The translations under genes and the position numbers were made by a program. This document shows positions 5,097 through 55,128 of a stretch of DNA of 64,000 nt, piece by piece. Where the stretch lies: contig OZ246402.1 of assembly GCA_965230975.1 (NCBI GenBank), positions 309,304 through 373,303 on the forward strand, written 5' to 3'. Source of the DNA: an uncultured Candidatus Saccharibacteria bacterium (GTDB taxonomy: Bacteria; Patescibacteriota; Dojkabacteria; J137). Position 1 is the stretch's first letter. Every line of letters starts with the position of its first letter. The notes beneath the pieces were generated by a model, which had not been told where the DNA came from, searched no databases, and saw nothing but the letters and a program-made list of their open reading frames with translations.

Positions 5097-5717
5097 ATGG
5101 GTAGTACACCAACCCCAGTTGAGCCAGTAGCACAAGCTCCAGTTCAACCTACTGCAACTCAAGTTGCAAAAAAATCAAATAAGAAATTACTTATTATTAT
5201 TGCAATAGTAGTTTTGTGTTTGTGCGTTAGCTCCTTAATAGCAATAGTTGCATTTGTATTACCTAGCTTGGCTTTAATCCCATTCTTTTCTATGGGTGGA
5301 CAAACAATTACTAATAACCCTTTAGAAAATACAACCGAAAATACATCAAATAACGATTCAGCTACATCGAACCCAGCAGATGATTCAAATTCTTGGTTTG
5401 ATGGATATACTCAAACAGAGATACCATCAGATTTCCCATCAGATGTAAAAATATATCCTAATGCAGTTGCATACATGACTTATGCATCAGAAGAAGGTAC
5501 AAGTGTTGGCTTTGCAGTACAAGCAAGCAATAATCAACTTTATAACTTTTATAGAACAGAGTTAGAAGATGCAGGTTGGGATATTTTATCTTCATCAAAT
5601 GCAGAAGGTTATGCATCTTTCATTGCATCTAAAGGTGACAGAGGTTTGGTAATTACAATTGGCAATTCAGATGATGAATCTAGCGATACAAATTACTTAG
5701 GAATTGTTTATTATTAA
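5097..5717 (+). CDS. Hypothetical membrane-anchored protein (short Pro/Val-rich cytoplasmic tail, one TM, extracytoplasmic domain)
   Basis: 206-aa ORF. A TM segment 'LLIIIAIVVLCLCVSSLIAIVAFVL' follows the 'KKSNKK' motif. No family match recognised. Confidence 0.5.
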   Translation: MGSTPTPVEPVAQAPVQPTATQVAKKSNKKLLIIIAIVVLCLCVSSLIAIVAFVLPSLALIPFFSMGGQTITNNPLENTTENTSNNDSATSNPADDSNSWFDGYTQTEIPSDFPSDVKIYPNAVAYMTYASEEGTSVGFAVQASNNQLYNFYRTELEDAGWDILSSSNAEGYASFIASKGDRGLVITIGNSDDESSDTNYLGIVYY

Positions 5718-5743
5718 TAACTCAATTTTTAAATTAAGAATTT

Positions 5744-44700: not shown

Positions 44701-47400
44701 CTACTTCCTTGATCTTTTTCCTTTAGCCTTATTACTTAAATCATCTATTATACTTTCTTCATAAGGTCTAAATTGAACTTTGACATTATTAACTTTCCCA
44801 TTTACAGAATCAAATACAGAACCAACTAGTTTTTCAGATAACTGATATCCAAATTTAGTTCTATATACCATCACTCCAAGAGTTATAAACATTAATCCAA
44901 CTAACAACATTCTTGCATCATCAAATATACCTGTGTTTGGTATAGCTGTTGGTGTGCAGTTTAGCAATGTTCTTAAGTCAAATGTTGTGCTGTTATCTTG
45001 AGTTGTTGATGTGTCATACTGCAATTTAGCTTGGTTAACTACACCTGGTGCTGTGAATGTTAACAAATTAGCCCTTGGAATTGTTAACGAATAAGTAAAT
45101 GTTTTTGATTGACCTGCAGTGTATGTTCTAGCAGTAGTATCACCAGTCCAAGTAATTTTACCTCCAGATACAGAACTGTATGTTGGATTAATATTAGTTG
45201 GTTGTATTCCTAGTGTTACTGCATTTGCATCATATTTGTCTTCTACAAAGTCAATTACTCCTGTTACACTACCAATGTTTTTAGCTGTAACTGTATAGTC
45301 AATTCTTGCATCTCCATCTGCTTCGCAAACAACTGCACCACTTTTTACTACATTAAATAATGGTTCAGCTTGAGCAGTTTGAGATACTGTAATGCTTTCT
45401 AAACATTCTGTTGGTGATGTTAATGCGGTTGATCCATCTAATAATACTCTTACATCATATGATCCAGCAGCTACTCCTGTTCCATTTGGTGCTGCAGATT
45501 CCCATCTGAATGTATATGTGTGAGTGCTAGTTATTGCGTCAAATGAATATGAGTATGCACTTACCAACGAACTAGATGTGTTTAATGCATCTCTTCCAAC
45601 TGGTGAGCCAGCTGTTCCTACTCTTAACCTTATATTTGGATAAGGGTTAGTTGTAGCTGGGTTTTGGTATTTCAAAACGTATTCTAAGTAGTTACCTGTA
45701 CCACTTGCTATAGGGTCATTTCCACTTTCAGTTAAATCAATACATTGTGCTGCTACTACTGTACATGTTGCTGTATTTAAAGATACAGGGTTTGTATTAA
45801 TTCCGCTTGTTGTTAAATAAACTCTTACATAATATATAGTTCCTTGTTGTAGTGTAAATGCTGTGCTACCTGTAAATCCAGTACCGTTAGTTACTGTTGT
45901 TCCAGATGGTACATTTTTGCTCCAATAGGTTGCAAAGTTTGATGTTGTTGATATATCTACTCTTACTGCTTGAGCAGGGTATGTTCCCATGTTCCAACTT
46001 ATTGTTGCTGTAGGTACTGTTGATCCTTCTGGACAAGTAGATGCTACAGTTGCAGTTGGGTTCGTTTCTGGTGTACATGTAGGTGATGTAGGATTATCAG
46101 GTAATCTACATCTATTTTCTGTACCAATGTTATAACAAGTCAAACCACTAGCACATAATATATTTGAAGAATTACAAATCTCATTACACTGAACAGTTTG
46201 AGTTGAAGGTGTATTTGGTGGATTGCCTGGAGTTGTAATTACCGTTGATGAGTTGAAACACTCAGGTTGAGCTCCACACGATGCACCCTCTCTATAGCAT
46301 TTCACTGCTCCATTAACGCTATAGCAATTATCACATTTATTACCACTTCCACCGCTAATTACATTACCACAACCTAGGAATCCGCTGGATGCAAGAGCAT
46401 AAGTCAGTGTCCCATCAGGAAGTTTGACTTCTTGACATTTTCTTAATGCCGCATTTTTTCTACATTCATCCTCTGTAAAACAAAATGCATCCTGTAAATT
46501 CTTTTGATCTGCCGTAGCACAGGAAGCACCGCAGGCATCTGTATTTATTATATCTGTTTTCCATTGGCCTAGTTGACTACATTGTACACCACTTGTTCCA
46601 CCAGTACATTTCCATGTAAAAGGAACACAAACTCCACCAGTAGGTATGGTACCTTTACTACCTGGAGAAGTACATGCAATAGTAGCCCAAACAGACTCTT
46701 GTTGAACTGTTGAACCATTTTCGTTATAACCACACCTAAATCTACCATCAATACATGAATAACATCCAAGTCCAATTCCACAGCCATCAGTTGCTGCATC
46801 ACCAGGTGTACAAGGGTCACCTATAGTTCCTAAATTAGATCCGTTATCGGACCCGCCAGTTACACTACCATTACTTGCTGTACAAGATGCACATGCTGGC
46901 TCATCTTTTGAACCTGTTGAACAACTAGCATTAGATTCTCCAGGATCACATCTTCCATCGTTTGGTCTGGCTGGGTTAATAGGTTCTCCATCTCTTGTTG
47001 TGGTTCCACAAAATCTATTTGTAGGGTACCATGATCCAGCCCTACATTGGTATTCTGCATTATATTGGTCACAAATAAAACCTTGATCTGGCGTGCCATT
47101 ACAACTAGTTGTACTACCAGTTGGAATTCCATTACCTCCATTAACTTGGGCAGAAAAACCTCCGCACTCTGGCCTAGCTGCAAAGTAGTCAGAACAACCA
47201 CAACCACAAGATTGCGAGCAACCCCATGTGCAAGCACTTGAGCTATCTGGGGCAAGGCCACTTTCTTGTGAAAGTCTATAAGCAATGAATAAAGAAACAG
47301 CAGCCAATACTACAATAAGTAGTATTAAAACGATTTTGAATACGTTCTTAGTTTGAACTTGTTGCATTGTTTTCTCCATTAAATCTATTATTAACACCAA
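44701..47400 (-). CDS. Giant Cys-rich surface protein (N-terminal signal-anchor, ~350-aa Cys-rich region, Fn3-like domain, DUF11-like repeat, C-terminal sorting-signal-like hydrophobic segment)
   Basis: 899 aa, about 60 Cys in the N-terminal third. Fn3-like segment 'TATISWNMGTYPAQ...IYYVRVYLTTSG'. 'VVCEADGDARIDYTVTAKNIGSVTGV' resembles a DUF11 repeat. 'IPNTG' plus a hydrophobic stretch plus 'RTK' lie near the C-terminus. The real start is possibly at internal Met 8 or 12. Confidence 0.6.
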   Translation of the reverse strand: MVLIIDLMEKTMQQVQTKNVFKIVLILLIVVLAAVSLFIAYRLSQESGLAPDSSSACTWGCSQSCGCGCSDYFAARPECGGFSAQVNGGNGIPTGSTTSCNGTPDQGFICDQYNAEYQCRAGSWYPTNRFCGTTTRDGEPINPARPNDGRCDPGESNASCSTGSKDEPACASCTASNGSVTGGSDNGSNLGTIGDPCTPGDAATDGCGIGLGCYSCIDGRFRCGYNENGSTVQQESVWATIACTSPGSKGTIPTGGVCVPFTWKCTGGTSGVQCSQLGQWKTDIINTDACGASCATADQKNLQDAFCFTEDECRKNAALRKCQEVKLPDGTLTYALASSGFLGCGNVISGGSGNKCDNCYSVNGAVKCYREGASCGAQPECFNSSTVITTPGNPPNTPSTQTVQCNEICNSSNILCASGLTCYNIGTENRCRLPDNPTSPTCTPETNPTATVASTCPEGSTVPTATISWNMGTYPAQAVRVDISTTSNFATYWSKNVPSGTTVTNGTGFTGSTAFTLQQGTIYYVRVYLTTSGINTNPVSLNTATCTVVAAQCIDLTESGNDPIASGTGNYLEYVLKYQNPATTNPYPNIRLRVGTAGSPVGRDALNTSSSLVSAYSYSFDAITSTHTYTFRWESAAPNGTGVAAGSYDVRVLLDGSTALTSPTECLESITVSQTAQAEPLFNVVKSGAVVCEADGDARIDYTVTAKNIGSVTGVIDFVEDKYDANAVTLGIQPTNINPTYSSVSGGKITWTGDTTARTYTAGQSKTFTYSLTIPRANLLTFTAPGVVNQAKLQYDTSTTQDNSTTFDLRTLLNCTPTAIPNTGIFDDARMLLVGLMFITLGVMVYRTKFGYQLSEKLVGSVFDSVNGKVNNVKVQFRPYEESIIDDLSNKAKGKRSRK

Positions 47401-48049: not shown

Positions 48050-48203
48050 AAAATTGTATATGTAGATCTACTTTTACCAGTATACAGAAAACGAAATAAA
48101 AGTAAAATTAAATAAAAAACATTAGATATATTAGCTAATATAAATTATCAGAATTAAATAAAGAAATCTAGCCTAAAATTAAATGCTTAGCTATAATTCA
48201 AGT

Positions 48204-48959
48204 ATGCTACAAATAAAAAACTTAAATATAAATTTGGCTCAAGGAAAAGAGATAGTTAAAAACTTTAACTTAACGGTTAATCCGGGTGAAATACATTTAC
48301 TTAATGGCAAAAACGGAAGTGGAAAATCTACATTGGTAAACACATTAATGGGTAATCCAAACTTTGAAATAATAAGTGGAGAAATACTTTTAAAAGATGA
48401 AAATATACCTGAATACATTTTAGAAAAAATTGATAACGAGTTCGTTACAAAAAACGAAAAAGAAATAACTATAAATCTCACACACTTAGAACCAACAGAA
48501 AGATCCTTGTGTGGCTTATTTTTAGCAAATCAGTACCCAATTGAAATCCCAGGCGTTTCTTTAACAAGTTTTTTAAGATTAATATATAACGCAAGAAGAC
48601 CAAAAGAAGAACAATTACCTGTTTTTAAATTTAAAAATTTATTATTAGAAAAAGCAAAACTAATAAATTACCCGGAACACCTATTAAAAAGAAACTTAAA
48701 CGAAGGTTTTTCAGGAGGAGAAAAAAAGAAAACGGAGATACTTCAAATGTTAGTATTAGAACCTAAATACGTATTTTTAGATGAAATTGATTCTGGTTTA
48801 GATAAAAGCTCTGTTCAAGAAGTTTTTACTGGAATTTCAGAATATAAAAAACTATTCCCGCAAACTGCATTTATAATAATAACTCACTACGATAGAGTAA
48901 AAGAATTCTTAAAAATTGATTTTGAGCATGAAATGCAAAATGGAGAATTAATTGCATAG
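48204..48959 (+). CDS. sufC: Fe-S cluster assembly ATPase SufC
   Basis: Walker A 'GKNGSGKST', signature 'FSGGEKKK', Walker B 'LDEIDSGLD', H-loop 'ITHY'. The N-terminus 'MLQIKNL' is collinear with E. coli SufC. The ORF is also open from the ATG at 48183. Confidence 0.85.
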   Translation: MLQIKNLNINLAQGKEIVKNFNLTVNPGEIHLLNGKNGSGKSTLVNTLMGNPNFEIISGEILLKDENIPEYILEKIDNEFVTKNEKEITINLTHLEPTERSLCGLFLANQYPIEIPGVSLTSFLRLIYNARRPKEEQLPVFKFKNLLLEKAKLINYPEHLLKRNLNEGFSGGEKKKTEILQMLVLEPKYVFLDEIDSGLDKSSVQEVFTGISEYKKLFPQTAFIIITHYDRVKEFLKIDFEHEMQNGELIA

Positions 48960-50398: not shown

Positions 50399-50417
50399 AT
50401 ATCTTTTCTAATAAGAT

Positions 50418-50458
50418 AACCCCGGGAATTGTGAAAACTTTTCCCGGGGATTTTTTTG
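50418..50458 (+). terminator. Rho-independent terminator (convergent with recO)
   Basis: ccccggg ... cccgggg stem followed by T7. Confidence 0.6.
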
Positions 50459-50505: not shown

Positions 50506-51240
50506 TTAAATTGACTTCATTAACAAATCAATTGACTTTAGCTTTTTTCCTAAAACTTGACTCAGCCAGTTTAGGTGAATTCTAAACATAGAATTAGAAA
50601 GTTCCTCTGTTAAATCTAATCTAAGTGCATTTTTAAGAGTAGAGTTTAATAAAAATCTTTGAGATTTATAAATCAATGGATTAACTTTATTATTTTGACT
50701 GGCTGCATCTTGCGTAACATAACCAATTGCATCTTCTGAAAAATAACCTTCACCCACTACAATCGGGTCTCCTGTATTTACATAATAATTTATTTCTGGA
50801 AGATTACCTGAAGCCTCTAAAACTTTAATAATAAAATAGGAAAGAATTAAAGTAATTTTTGAGGGTTCTGTATTCAATATCTCATTGAAAATAAGGTAAA
50901 TATGAGGGTCGGGATTCTCTTCAAAAGAAAAGTTATCTATAATTTCACAAATAAATTGAAGCGTTGTTATGGATTTTAAATCTGTTTTCCATTTGGCAAA
51001 TTCGTTCAATAAGTTAACCTCGGTAATCAGTGGGGTTGCATATCCACTTATCATACTTGCTTTTATTAAGTTGCCGATTTCTATAGAGTGGGCCTTTCTG
51101 CTATTTTGTTTTTTAACACCTTTAGCAATTGCAACAACCTTTTTCCCACTCTCATCTAAAATACTAACCACTTTATCTGTAGCGCCAGAATTATAAGTTC
51201 TATAGATTATTCCCTTTGTATTTTGAGAACGTGACGTCAT
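50506..51240 (-). CDS. recO: DNA repair protein RecO
   Basis: The N-terminal OB-fold 'GIIYRTYNSGATDKVVSILDESGKKVVAIAKGVKK' matches RecO (GIVL..R.YGE.D.I..L.T...G.......KGAR.). Confidence 0.7.
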   Translation of the reverse strand: MTSRSQNTKGIIYRTYNSGATDKVVSILDESGKKVVAIAKGVKKQNSRKAHSIEIGNLIKASMISGYATPLITEVNLLNEFAKWKTDLKSITTLQFICEIIDNFSFEENPDPHIYLIFNEILNTEPSKITLILSYFIIKVLEASGNLPEINYYVNTGDPIVVGEGYFSEDAIGYVTQDAASQNNKVNPLIYKSQRFLLNSTLKNALRLDLTEELSNSMFRIHLNWLSQVLGKKLKSIDLLMKSI

Positions 51241-51281
51241 AAATATCTTTTACTACTAATATAATAGCATTACAAATTGAT

Positions 51282-51572
51282 TTGGTGATGACAAAGAAAA
51301 TAAAGTATGAAATACTAGTGTTTATGTACGCGAGTCAACTAAATATTTTAAAAAATATCTTTTGGGAATTTGATATCTCTTTGCTTGATATTACTAAGCA
51401 TTCTGTATTTATTATAGAACGAACATTAGAAAAGGGGAGAGAGGAACATGTGAGTTCTCTTTTTAAAATATACTCAAAACACCAAATACAAAGTGTGTTA
51501 GAATCTTCAAATAACCTTAGCTTTAAAACTAAGAACTTTTGGAGTTTATTCTTTAAATATGCCCTTACATAA
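51282..51572 (+). CDS. Hypothetical small protein, overlapping the AbiEii-like gene by 14 nt (possible cognate partner)
   Basis: 96-aa ORF. No motif. Position and coupling suggest the partner of the downstream nucleotidyltransferase. Confidence 0.4.
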   Translation: MVMTKKIKYEILVFMYASQLNILKNIFWEFDISLLDITKHSVFIIERTLEKGREEHVSSLFKIYSKHQIQSVLESSNNLSFKTKNFWSLFFKYALT

Positions 51573-52191
51573 AAACACACTAAATACTCAAAGCTTTAAA
51601 CTTTTAGAAAATATAAATTCACACCCTAATTTTAAAAACTTTTATTTAGCTGGTGGAACTTCTTTGGCATTACAAATTGGCCATAGGGAATCAATTGATC
51701 TGGATTTTTTTTCAGGAGTTGAATTTCCTTTTAGCCTTATAGATTCTATTAAAAAGCCATATCAGGCTATATCTATTCATAACAACTCTATAGAAGCCGT
51801 TATGGATGAAACCAAGATTTTCTTTTTTTATTTTGCTTTCCCAAGGTTTAAAGATATTAAAATTATACAAGGAATAAGATTTGCAGACCCGATTGATATT
51901 GGATTAATGAAGTTACTAGCCTTGCAAGGCAGAACAACAAGAAAAGATATTATTGATTTGTTCTTTATAGATAAAGAGATAATCAATTTAGAAGATTTAA
52001 TGGAGATTTTCCAGTATCATTATCCTAAAGAGAAATTCAATTCAATAGACAGTATTAAAACATTGATTGACAGTAGTGTTCTAGATAGTCAGCCAATGCC
52101 TAAAATGCTTGTAGATTTTAATTGGGAAGAATCTAAAATTGTTGTAATTGAAAAGTTAATAAAATCTATATCTAAGTATTTAATAAAATAA
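51559..52191 (+). CDS. AbiEii/AbiGii-family nucleotidyltransferase (type IV toxin-antitoxin / abortive-infection toxin-like)
   Basis: 'FYLAGGTSLALQIGHRESIDLDFFS' matches the family signature GGTAL...R.S.DLDF. 210 aa. Confidence 0.6.
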   Translation: MPLHKNTLNTQSFKLLENINSHPNFKNFYLAGGTSLALQIGHRESIDLDFFSGVEFPFSLIDSIKKPYQAISIHNNSIEAVMDETKIFFFYFAFPRFKDIKIIQGIRFADPIDIGLMKLLALQGRTTRKDIIDLFFIDKEIINLEDLMEIFQYHYPKEKFNSIDSIKTLIDSSVLDSQPMPKMLVDFNWEESKIVVIEKLIKSISKYLIK

Positions 52192-52192
52192 T

Positions 52193-52780
52193 ATGAACAA
52201 TAGAGTAGAAAATAAAATCGTTTTATTTGAAAGTAAGGGTTCTAATTCAGACTCATTAAATTCAAATGATATTTTAATTGCGGAGTTTAATTATGCTATG
52301 CAAACAGCAAGCCAATCTAACGAAGATAGGGTTAAGATTTTTCAGTTTGTTGTGGCAAATATTTTAACAATAGCTGCAACGCTTTTCTTTTCAGAATTTG
52401 CACAAAGTGATTTTAAAAAGTTAATGGCATTTGTATTTGTCTTTTTTATGGTTTTTGGGGTTATATCGTTACTTCAGCTTTCTAGGTTAAGGCTGGCTTG
52501 GATAGATAGTGTAAAAGCGATGAATAAAATTAAGGATTATTATATTACTCAAAACGAATCTTTATCTGAGGCATTTTTGTGGAGAACAAGTACCATTCCT
52601 AAAGCTAAAAAAGATTTATCTTTGGCATATTTACTTGCACTATCTTTAATGATAATTAATGCTTTGTCTACAGGTATTGCTTTGCAGCTTATATTCTCAA
52701 ATTATCTAGTATCAATATTGGGTTCTTTTATAGCTTTTGTAGTTCAATTAGTTATTTGGAATAGAGTATTGGGAAAATAA
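52193..52780 (+). CDS. Hypothetical 4-TM membrane protein
   Basis: 195 aa. It starts 1 nt after the NTase stop. Confidence 0.45.
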   Translation: MNNRVENKIVLFESKGSNSDSLNSNDILIAEFNYAMQTASQSNEDRVKIFQFVVANILTIAATLFFSEFAQSDFKKLMAFVFVFFMVFGVISLLQLSRLRLAWIDSVKAMNKIKDYYITQNESLSEAFLWRTSTIPKAKKDLSLAYLLALSLMIINALSTGIALQLIFSNYLVSILGSFIAFVVQLVIWNRVLGK

Positions 52781-52782
52781 AT

Positions 52783-53322
52783 ATGAAGGAATCTTTCGAA
52801 GAAATGCTAAAAGGTGGTCATCCTAATTCTTTAGGTAGAACTTTGGAAGTTGTAGAAATAATTGAGAATGATCCCTCAAAACTTGAAGAATTGTATGGGT
52901 GTTATTTTAGTCAAGATGAGTTAGTAAGATTAAGAGTTTCCAACGGTATCAAAAGAATTTCGCGAGAACATAGAGAGTGGCTTATCCCGTATATAGATAG
53001 GCTTTTGAACGAAATATCTAAAATTGATCAAGCTTCTACAAAGTGGACTTTAGCCGAATTATTTAGAACATTAACAGAATTTATGAGTCCAGAACAATAT
53101 TCTAAATCTAAATCTATTTTGAAGCATAATCTAGAGAACGATAAAGACTGGATTGTAATTAACTGGACTATGCAAACTTTGGCAGAGTGGGCTGTTACAG
53201 AGCCTGATTTAAGAGAGTGGCTAAAGCCCAGATTAGTAAAGTTCTCTAAAGACAATCACAAATCTATTAGTGGTAGGGCAAAAAGATTATTAAATGAATT
53301 AAACTATTCTAATCTCCATTAA
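52783..53322 (+). CDS. Hypothetical soluble alpha-helical (HEAT/ARM-like) protein
   Basis: 179 aa. It starts 2 nt after the preceding stop. The family is unknown, with weak resemblance to DNA-alkylation-repair-like HEAT proteins. Confidence 0.4.
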   Translation: MKESFEEMLKGGHPNSLGRTLEVVEIIENDPSKLEELYGCYFSQDELVRLRVSNGIKRISREHREWLIPYIDRLLNEISKIDQASTKWTLAELFRTLTEFMSPEQYSKSKSILKHNLENDKDWIVINWTMQTLAEWAVTEPDLREWLKPRLVKFSKDNHKSISGRAKRLLNELNYSNLH

Positions 53323-54135
53323 TCTTTGTACTCTTTTTTCTGTAGATGGGTGTGTAGAAAATAATTCTGTAACACCACCACCTTTAAACGGATTCGATAT
53401 ATATAAAGATGACATTGCAGGGTTCCCTTGCTGTAAAGGTATTTGCCTTGATGCTTGGTCTATTTTAATTAGCGCATTTGCCAACCCATTTGGATTTTGA
53501 GTATATTTAGCTGCGGTTGCATCTGCCTCATATTCTCGGGACCTGGAAATAGCAAGTTGAATTAATGTTGCCGAAATAGGTGCTAGTATTAGAATTAATA
53601 AATCTACAATTGGACTTCTGTCTCTATCTCCACCTCCAAAGAATAAACCCAGCTGTGCTATTGAAGAGATTGCCCCTGCAATTACTGCAGCGACCGTTGC
53701 TATTAATACATCTCTATTTTTAATATGGGCTAATTCGTGTGCAATTACCCCTTCAATCTCTTCTTTACTTAGCATTTGAACTAAACCACTTGTAACGCAG
53801 ACAGAACTATTTCCAGGTCCCTTGCCTGTGGCAAATGCATTAGGTTGCATGTTTGGTGAAATGTATAGTTTTGGCATTGGTAAGCCCATTTTGCTGGTTA
53901 GTGATTCGGTTATTGAAAATATTTGAGGACTTTCATTTTTCGAAAGAGGTTTCGCACCATTCATCATTAATGCAATCTTGTCCCCAAAAAGATAGGCGAA
54001 AATGTTGGAGAAAATTCCAAAAAATAAAAATATTATTAAGCCACCTCTTCCGCTAATTAAATAACCAATAACGCCTAGAAGGGCAGTTAGCGCGCCAAAG
54101 AGAATGATTGTTTTGAATGTTGGTGAAAGTCTCAT
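53299..54135 (-). CDS. htpX: Protease HtpX (M48 family)
   Basis: 'HELAHIKNRD' zinc motif. N-terminal TM helices. 278 aa. Confidence 0.85.
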   Translation of the reverse strand: MRLSPTFKTIILFGALTALLGVIGYLISGRGGLIIFLFFGIFSNIFAYLFGDKIALMMNGAKPLSKNESPQIFSITESLTSKMGLPMPKLYISPNMQPNAFATGKGPGNSSVCVTSGLVQMLSKEEIEGVIAHELAHIKNRDVLIATVAAVIAGAISSIAQLGLFFGGGDRDRSPIVDLLILILAPISATLIQLAISRSREYEADATAAKYTQNPNGLANALIKIDQASRQIPLQQGNPAMSSLYISNPFKGGGVTELFSTHPSTEKRVQRLMEIRIV

Positions 54136-54669: not shown

Positions 54670-55128
54670 TTATAAAGGCATATCTAATCTTCTTACAACT
54701 GCAGTTACAAAAGCTCTGTTTCTAGAACCTGTTAATGCTGTAAATAAGAATTCTGGTAAATGCGATGTATGAGTGTCTTGCAAGTACTCTAGTATAAATC
54801 TTACAAGCATGTGTAATTCTAATTCAATCTTATCTTTTTTAACGCCTTCGATAAATTTAAAGAAATTTTCAATATCACCACACATTAAATAAAGTTCTGC
54901 ATTTTGGAACCCTGCTTGATCTTTATTTTCTAAAAGGTTGTCGATGTTAGCCTTAAAGCTTTCGTAGTCTTGAGTTACAGCAATTGTTTGTGGAATTTCT
55001 AAAGCATCTATACTATCAAGGTATTCTCGAATTGAAAGTTGCCCGGTGTAAATACTATCGTAAAGTCTTTCGAACTGAACTAAGAAGGATTTGTCAGCCG
55101 CTGTTAACACTACCTCATCTGCATCCAT
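54670..55128 (-). CDS. Hypothetical protein
   Basis: 152-aa ORF with an acidic N-terminus. No motif. Confidence 0.45.
   Translation of the reverse strand: MDADEVVLTAADKSFLVQFERLYDSIYTGQLSIREYLDSIDALEIPQTIAVTQDYESFKANIDNLLENKDQAGFQNAELYLMCGDIENFFKFIEGVKKDKIELELHMLVRFILEYLQDTHTSHLPEFLFTALTGSRNRAFVTAVVRRLDMPL

Follow-up and report, generated by a model that had tools for sequence, protein, structure and literature searches.

A DUF6922 protein and a compact AbiEii-type nucleotidyltransferase form the recurrent, self-contained unit of a four-gene recO-htpX interval in a Dojkabacteria-type genome

We describe a pair of adjacent genes, one encoding a DUF6922 protein and the other an AbiEii-type nucleotidyltransferase (NTase), that lies between the housekeeping genes recO and htpX of an uncultured Candidatus Saccharibacteria bacterium (GTDB lineage Dojkabacteria; contig OZ246402.1, positions 309,304 to 373,303). 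The stretch of DNA that was analyzed, here called the window, is 64,000 nucleotides (nt) long, and coordinates are given relative to its first letter. In the list of open reading frames (ORFs), the recO-htpX interval consists of four tightly packed ORFs on the plus strand. The first two, the DUF6922 gene (ORF1) and the NTase gene (ORF2), are an obligate pair and the sole recurrent, self-contained unit of the locus. Our favored reading, to which we assign a probability of roughly 0.7, is that the locus comprises three independent pieces packed together: a DUF6922-NTase pair resembling a toxin-antitoxin system, a resident membrane protein gene (ORF3) and an acquired HEAT-repeat gene (ORF4). A previous interpretation of the same DNA, referred to below as the sequence-only reading, had described the four genes as a single insertion and as a possible new abortive-infection architecture. 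Its ORF coordinates, strand assignment, 14-nt overlap between ORF1 and ORF2, and gaps of 1 nt (ORF2-ORF3) and 2 nt (ORF3-ORF4) agree with the ORF list.

Relatives of ORF2 were collected from contig look-ups, a metagenome scan and plasmid matches, which together yielded 90 genes; at 90% identity these fall into 82 clusters. Upstream neighbors were counted in the 75 clusters with at least 260 nt of upstream sequence, and downstream neighbors in the 65 clusters with at least 700 nt of downstream sequence. A DUF6922 ORF was found immediately upstream, on the same strand, in 75/75 clusters. The cassette is defined here, by this co-occurrence, as a DUF6922 ORF directly upstream of an AbiEii-type NTase of 200-225 amino acids (aa) on the same strand, a layout that the window pair fits. 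Among the 65 clusters, 3 had an ORF3-like gene downstream of the NTase, and these belong without exception to the clade of the window; one had an ORF4-like gene. Neither gene was near the pair in the other 62, and both occur apart from it in other genomes. The proposed multi-gene abortive-infection architecture that included ORF3 and ORF4 is therefore not supported.

Those relatives of ORF2 that carry names are mostly from Candidatus Dojkabacteria or Patescibacteria, and homologues with 47-59% identity occur in many Candidatus Dojkabacteria genomes. This distribution is a point in favor of an alternative in which ORF1 and ORF2 are a domesticated RNA or tRNA nucleotidyltransferase and its regulatory subunit and do housekeeping work for cells of the Dojkabacteria type (Patescibacteria). 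The neighbors of the pair, which include ribosomal S20, tRNA_bind, S1, ClpB and recO, fit such a role, as does the lack of obvious mobility features: the surroundings of the cassette showed no integrase genes, and a repeat scan detected only short, chance-level matches and no direct or inverted repeats that could mark the boundary of a mobile element. However, the context of the pair differs in every lineage examined, which argues for mobility. In Dojkabacteria-type genomes it occupies five unrelated contexts, and its surroundings in different genomes include ribosomal S20/tRNA_bind, Peptidase_S74/S1-ClpB and VTT/ABC-2 genes. The same pair is also carried by Bacteroidota plasmids, beside Fic/VbhA toxin-antitoxin and conjugation genes; its partner is in some cases fused to a helix-turn-helix (HTH) domain, as would suit an autoregulated toxin-antitoxin system; and the members of the NTase family that have been studied experimentally are all toxins (PMC3985639, PMC7450476). 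We consider a housekeeping function unlikely.

ORF2 (51559-52191, plus strand, 210 aa) carries 'FYLAGGTSLALQIGHRESIDLDFFS' and matches Pfam AbiEii PF08843 (E=3.3e-12; 47.3 bits, cutoff 22.5) as well as four PADLOC AbiEii models (best E=4.7e-8), in agreement with the sequence-only reading. In an alignment of 35 homologues with identity down to 31%, the residues G32, G33, T34, G41, H42, R43, S45, D47 and D49 are invariant, as are D113, K118, R125, K129, D130 and D133. The motifs of pol-beta NTases are therefore intact, including a 'KLxAxxxR'-like motif (K118-R125), and a Ser separated from the first catalytic Asp by a single residue (S45-x-D47) is present in 35/35 sequences. Searched against the PDB as a single sequence, ORF2 returned nothing meaningful; with a family profile, the DUF1814 NTase JHP933 was reached (4O8S/4OK0; E=1.3e-4), its R-F-S-E-D-L-D aligning with H-R-E-S-I-D-L-D of ORF2. 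No SMODS or CBASS (cyclic oligonucleotide-based antiphage signaling system) model of Pfam or PADLOC matched, and viral contigs contained four weak, partial relatives only. ORF2 is a compact AbiEii/DUF1814 nucleotidyltransferase of the pol-beta fold and an unremarkable representative of a toxin family already known. It looks active, because the motif residues are invariant, and by analogy it is a putative toxin.

ORF1 (51282-51572, plus strand) matches Pfam DUF6922 PF21956 (E=3.5e-15; 55.6 bits, cutoff 27). A Pfam scan at E<=1 gave no HTH family and none of AbiEi_1 to AbiEi_4, which bears out the earlier view that the partner of the NTase is neither a canonical AbiEi nor an HTH protein. The length of 96 aa given for it previously is that of the longest possible ORF; the start is ambiguous among TTG 51282, ATG 51288 and ATG 51324, giving 82-96 aa. 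Homologues are 74-119 aa long and their alignment begins at about residue 15-23 of ORF1, and therefore the true start may be ATG 51288 or ATG 51324. Homologues as called in gene predictions have 80 to 103 aa, and similarity to DUF6922 sets in at about residue 23. When all PDB chains were searched at E<=10, the DUF6922 family profile produced only spurious matches to repeat proteins, with no MenA1, AbiEi or other antitoxin among them. DUF6922 occurs alone or fused to an HTH domain, in Patescibacteria, metagenomes and Bacteroidota plasmids. In at least four cases in addition to a Phocaeicola plasmid, the partner of a short AbiEii gene consists of an N-terminal HTH_3, HTH_31 or HTH_17 domain followed by DUF6922; the fusion loci include L117 (Phocaeicola vulgatus plasmid NZ_CP096966.1, 1989-3172), L079, L088 and L092. 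Antitoxins that regulate their own operon classically have such an HTH joined to a second domain. ORF1 is a putative antitoxin or regulator of ORF2. The RefSeq label of the plasmid fusion protein of L117 is only 'helix-turn-helix transcriptional regulator'.

Two characterized systems are closest to the pair. AbiEii of the type IV AbiE system is a growth-arresting NTase that is neutralized by AbiEi (PMC3985639). The window pair shares with AbiE an AbiEii domain scoring above threshold, a bicistronic, overlapping operon with the partner upstream, and the pol-beta and 'KLxAxxxR'-like motifs of ORF2 (K118-R125; PMC3985639). It differs in that AbiEi (COG5340; a winged HTH plus a C-terminal domain, ~200-300 aa) is missing and replaced in position by an ORF1 of at most 96 aa, and in that ORF2, at ~210 aa, falls short of the 238 positions of the Pfam AbiEii model. 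The second system is MenAT of Mycobacterium tuberculosis, whose toxins MenT1, MenT3 and MenT4 attach nucleotides to the acceptor/3' ends of tRNA (PMC7450476, PMC10435456). Here the likeness extends to the NTase, which in both cases is of the DUF1814/AbiEii type, has a DxD motif and a catalytic Lys, and bears a conserved Ser/Thr at the second position ahead of the first Asp. The S-x-D spacing of ORF2 is that of phospho-S78/D80 in MenT3 and S67/D69 in MenT4, and an invariant Lys and Asp further along its sequence correspond to K189/D211 and K171/D186 of these proteins (PMC7450476). In MenAT1 the antitoxin gene is likewise upstream, and its product, like ORF1, is small and free of a winged HTH. 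Several unrelated antitoxins, the 7.4-kDa MenA1 among them, neutralize MenT toxins in two ways: they bind the toxin, and they cause it to phosphorylate its own active-site Ser/Thr (PMC11375011). Unlike MenA1, ORF1 belongs to DUF6922, a family whose profile reaches neither MenA1 nor AbiEi chains in the PDB search described above. ORF2 is also shorter than the MenT toxins and matches JHP933 rather than MenT structures, and the pair is known from sequence alone.

The Phocaeicola vulgatus plasmid pPvulCL10_1 (NZ_CP096966.1) carries a pair with the same gene order (DUF6922, E=4e-21; AbiEii, E=7e-13). Its NTase is ~32% identical to ORF2, and its partner, at 171 aa, has an extra N-terminal XRE-type HTH, whereas ORF1 of the window is a bare DUF6922 protein. 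By analogy with AbiEii and MenT, the G-G...R-x-S-x-D-x-D / K / D active site of ORF2 would attach nucleotides to a cellular RNA, and translation would thereby be arrested. ORF1 would bind and neutralize ORF2, whether it sequesters the enzyme or makes it phosphorylate its own invariant Ser45. Since ORF2 keeps every one of these residues of the characterized family, Ser45 included, we infer that it is a toxin acting on tRNA or RNA and that ORF1 restrains it.

ORF3 (52193-52780, plus strand, 195 aa) is predicted to form four long helices, consistent with the four-transmembrane protein proposed earlier. Two hydrophobic hairpins in a helix-TM-TM-helix layout (TM, transmembrane segment) are predicted, and an AlphaFold2 model (predicted local distance difference test, pLDDT, 73.7) contains two long helical hairpins, H24-69/H72-120 and H144-168/H171-194. 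No family of Pfam or NCBIfam matched ORF3 above threshold, and PADLOC gave no match. A Foldseek comparison of the fold with the PDB had a best E of 1 and thus no significant match; hmmsearch of the family profile against the PDB had a best E of 0.009, over the TM stretch only, and revealed no solved homologue. A word-indexed search identified 12 relatives, and a profile search 598 cluster representatives. No relatives were found in viral contigs, and neither ORF3 nor its relative from a TIR island had a plasmid match.

Where ORF3-like genes occur apart from the cassette, they show that the two are separable. In loci L002-L007 and L013-L014, recO on the minus strand is followed by an ORF3-like gene on the plus strand and then by a gene for a MacB/LolD-type ABC ATPase, with neither DUF6922 nor NTase; compared with the window, RecO is 26-30% identical and ORF3 ~44%. 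In locus L001 the ORF3-like gene lies among ordinary genes. Because the recO/ORF3-like order occurs without the cassette, and ORF3-like genes are also found elsewhere, ORF3 is probably a resident neighbor of recO in this lineage and independent of the cassette. The ORF2 copies that are linked to ORF3 are all at least 68% identical to ORF2 of the window, whereas the unlinked copies are all at most 56% identical, a pattern that fits a single origin of the ORF2-ORF3 linkage and vertical inheritance since then. These recO-ORF3 loci, together with the relatives L011 and L012 described below, also contradict the insertion of all four genes as one event.

In the loci with an ATPase (L002, 4655-5862; L013, 5648-6855; also L003-L007 and L014), the ORF3-like gene overlaps that of a 221-aa MacB/LolD/FtsE-type ATPase by 4 nt, and no FtsX-type permease gene is near the ORF3-like/ATPase genes of L002-L007 and L013-L014. 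The ORF3-like protein of these loci may be a partner of the ABC ATPase. A similar role as a permease partner was considered for ORF3 of the window and rejected, as no such ATPase gene is adjacent; the only nearby ABC gene of the window (48183-48959) encodes a protein ~23% identical to the ATPases of L002 and L013.

A three-gene module is an alternative to an independent ORF3. In the window's clade, the pair would have taken ORF3 into its service as a membrane effector or sensor of the SLATT type, and the activity or product of the NTase would be coupled to membrane permeabilization, as in a minimal CBASS-like or abortive-infection system whose NTase is of the DUF1814 and not the SMODS kind. 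Similarity to SLATT and 8xMP proteins is suggested by the helix-TM-TM-helix layout of the AlphaFold2 model and by weak but recurrent profile matches: among 138 ORF3 relatives, 15 matched NCBIfam SLATT_1 (best E=1.3e-4) and 38 matched Pfam 8xMP at E<=0.01. The scores are nonetheless all below cutoff. ORF3 itself obtained 16.1 bits against SLATT_1 (cutoff 41) and no match to 8xMP, and ten relatives scanned singly gave four 8xMP matches, at 16-20 bits against a cutoff of 30. ORF3 further differs from SLATT/8xMP proteins in its second TM hairpin and in its genomic position elsewhere, where the gene adjoins recO and shows translational coupling to that of a MacB/LolD-type ABC ATPase. Searches of the literature on 8xMP, on octameric membrane proteins and on octamers of SLATT proteins found nothing relevant.

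Gene order speaks on both sides of a three-gene module. ORF2 and ORF3 lie close together in each of the five linked loci (gaps of 1, 1, 4 and 2 nt; in L119, whose ORF3 has 45% identity, the genes overlap by 4 nt), and a sequence scan found no terminator-like site inside the four-ORF block. Relatives of ORF3 also lie beside TIR and SIR2 genes or are fused to NUDIX. One is located between RES and TIR/SIR2 genes in a compact island (L008, 827-6958; also L009 and L010) that contains RES, ORF3-like, CAP12/PCTIR-type TIR, SIR2_2 and radical SAM genes and looks like a defense island. Another is the 469-aa protein P0276, a fusion of an N-terminal NUDIX domain (E=2e-13) and an ORF3-like membrane domain (residues 239-400). 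Against a module stand the 62/65 non-redundant cassettes without an ORF3-like gene, the ORF3 homologues beside recO without any NTase, and the restriction of the linkage to one monophyletic ORF2 clade, as simple vertical inheritance predicts. The characterized DUF1814 NTases modify tRNA and are not makers of second messengers (PMC7450476, PMC10435456), ORF2 has AbiEii/DUF1814 matches only and is not cGAS/DncV-like (SMODS) as in CBASS, and ORF3 is not recognized by PADLOC. An architecture of an AbiEii-type NTase with a membrane effector was not present among the PADLOC models or in the literature searched. A three-gene module is therefore judged improbable, though it remains well ahead of a joint function for all four genes.

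ORF4 (52783-53322, plus strand, 179 aa) is a HEAT/ARM-repeat protein with a stacked helical-hairpin repeat fold, in line with the HEAT-like soluble protein of the sequence-only reading. It has more than 1000 homologues of ~175 aa and 57-66% identity in cyanobacteria, Chloroflexota and Proteobacteria; none were found in viral contigs. The family has an invariant N-terminal GGHxNSLG loop, in which x is Pro in all but two of 34 aligned sequences, and matches no Pfam family. Several Trp and Arg residues are also invariant, and conservation across phyla is unusually high. In nine genomes ORF4 homologues stand alone, with long intergenic spacers and no common neighbor, and ORF1, ORF2 and ORF3 are absent within 5 kb of them. 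In one locus (L032), the ORF4 homologue shares 11 nt with a MetE-like (Meth_synt_2) gene that it overlaps.

Syntenic relatives of the locus place ORF4 apart from the other three genes. L011 and L012 (RecO 79% and HtpX 82% identical to the window) have the order recO, DUF6922, AbiEii, ORF3-like, htpX and lack ORF4; a 124-aa minus-strand gene follows htpX where ORF4 is missing. L030, with 97.5% DNA identity by blastn, has all four ORFs and, between ORF4 and htpX, an additional 135-aa minus-strand gene. Compared by eye, the 124-aa gene product of L011 and the 135-aa product of L030 are remotely alike (both have FL.D...FT and LID.N). Because ORF4 is absent from the syntenic L011 and L012 and is a singleton in cyanobacteria, it appears independent of the rest, and it is probably a recent addition here that was separately acquired by horizontal transfer. 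A single novel abortive-infection operon of all four genes could draw on their tight spacing on one strand and on their joint retention in L030. L011 and L012 nevertheless have ORF1-ORF3 in the same place without ORF4, the nine ORF4 loci have no ORF1-ORF3 and no conserved neighbor, and ORF4 accompanies the cassette in only 1/65 clusters. We regard such an operon as very improbable, and the full four-gene model is essentially excluded by the comparative data.

In the favored reading, that of three independent pieces, the locus would have been assembled in steps. The recO gene and the ORF3 membrane gene would already have been divergent neighbors when the ORF1-ORF2 cassette was inserted between them in the ancestor of the clade, to be inherited vertically since. 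ORF4 would then have been gained horizontally between ORF3 and htpX in the window's closest relatives only, and a later deletion of ~500 bp would have brought it into overlap with htpX. The trace of this last step is seen in L030, where ~500 bp (5230-5729) are absent from the window at 53283-53322; the window has 32 unique nt instead, and the C-terminus of its ORF4 differs from that of L030. The 24-nt overlap of ORF4 with the 3' end of htpX (53299-53322), absent from the sequence-only reading, is explained by the deletion of this segment relative to L030.

Several points weigh against this reading. No relative with an empty recO-ORF3 junction was found within the window's clade, and the insertion of the cassette at this position is inferred from distant relatives alone. 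The tight coupling of ORF2 with ORF3, kept down to 45% ORF3 identity, is compatible with functional recruitment of ORF3, and the RES/TIR/SIR2 island and NUDIX fusion of its relatives lend it a whiff of conflict systems. DUF6922 has no solved homologue in the PDB and no characterized one, and the literature searched does not mention it. Finally, toxicity, neutralization and the RNA target of the pair are argued by analogy.

The genes on either side of the block are housekeeping genes on the minus strand, as the sequence-only reading had it. RecO (50506-51240) matches TIGR00613 (E=1.3e-24) and Pfam RecO_N and RecO_C, and HtpX (53299-54135) matches NF002826 (E=5e-98). recO is divergent from the block and separated from ORF1 by a 41-nt spacer (51241-51281), which on the plus strand contains a perfect TATAAT at 51260-51265, a candidate promoter element for the plus-strand genes; a consensus scan called no full -35/-10 site in this spacer. 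A terminator had been invoked as separating recO from the block. The terminator-like hairpin is real (50413-50456; inverted repeat I15) and has a GC-rich stem (CCCCGGGAA...TTCCCGGGG) followed by a T-run, but it is located between the convergent stops of a plus-strand 442-aa gene (50398) and recO (50506). It therefore marks the 3' end of recO, lies outside the block and cannot serve as a boundary between the two. Since the block has no internal terminator-like site, its co-transcription is plausible. In a gene-dense genome of ~1.2 Mb, tight spacing probably reflects co-transcription and is not evidence of common function. The G+C content across the locus is ~27-33%.

Two further genes of the window were noted. 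Beside htpX, a minus-strand gene (54670-55128) encodes a 152-aa protein of no assigned function that is kept in the same position in L011 and L030 (50-55% identity) and has a strongly conserved C-terminus, ...HLPE(F/L)LFTA(L/V)TGS.NRAF(V/A)TAV.RR.D(M/L)PL. At 44701-47400 (minus strand), the G+C content rises to 0.40-0.44 in the gene of an 899-aa Cys/Gly/Thr-rich secreted protein, which ends in a C-terminal IPNTG sortase-like motif and a hydrophobic anchor.

The 'four-gene defense island' of the window is mostly ordinary, and tight gene packing in reduced genomes of the candidate phyla radiation should not be taken as functional linkage. The NTase family and DUF6922 as a Pfam entry were already known; the data presented here reveal the strict pairing of a compact NTase subfamily with DUF6922. 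DUF1814/AbiEii NTases are an active topic, owing to the MenT toxins of M. tuberculosis, AbiE phage defense and antitoxin-induced auto-phosphorylation, and the antitoxins characterized so far are either AbiEi-like or small, unrelated proteins such as MenA1. That DUF6922 is an uncharacterized antitoxin class, acting for example through auto-phosphorylation of Ser45, and that the cassette has in addition captured a SLATT-like ORF3 as a three-gene system, are together an outside chance. For DUF6922 itself, the strict pairing (75/75) and the HTH-fused versions make it a credible candidate for a new, third type of antitoxin for DUF1814 toxins.

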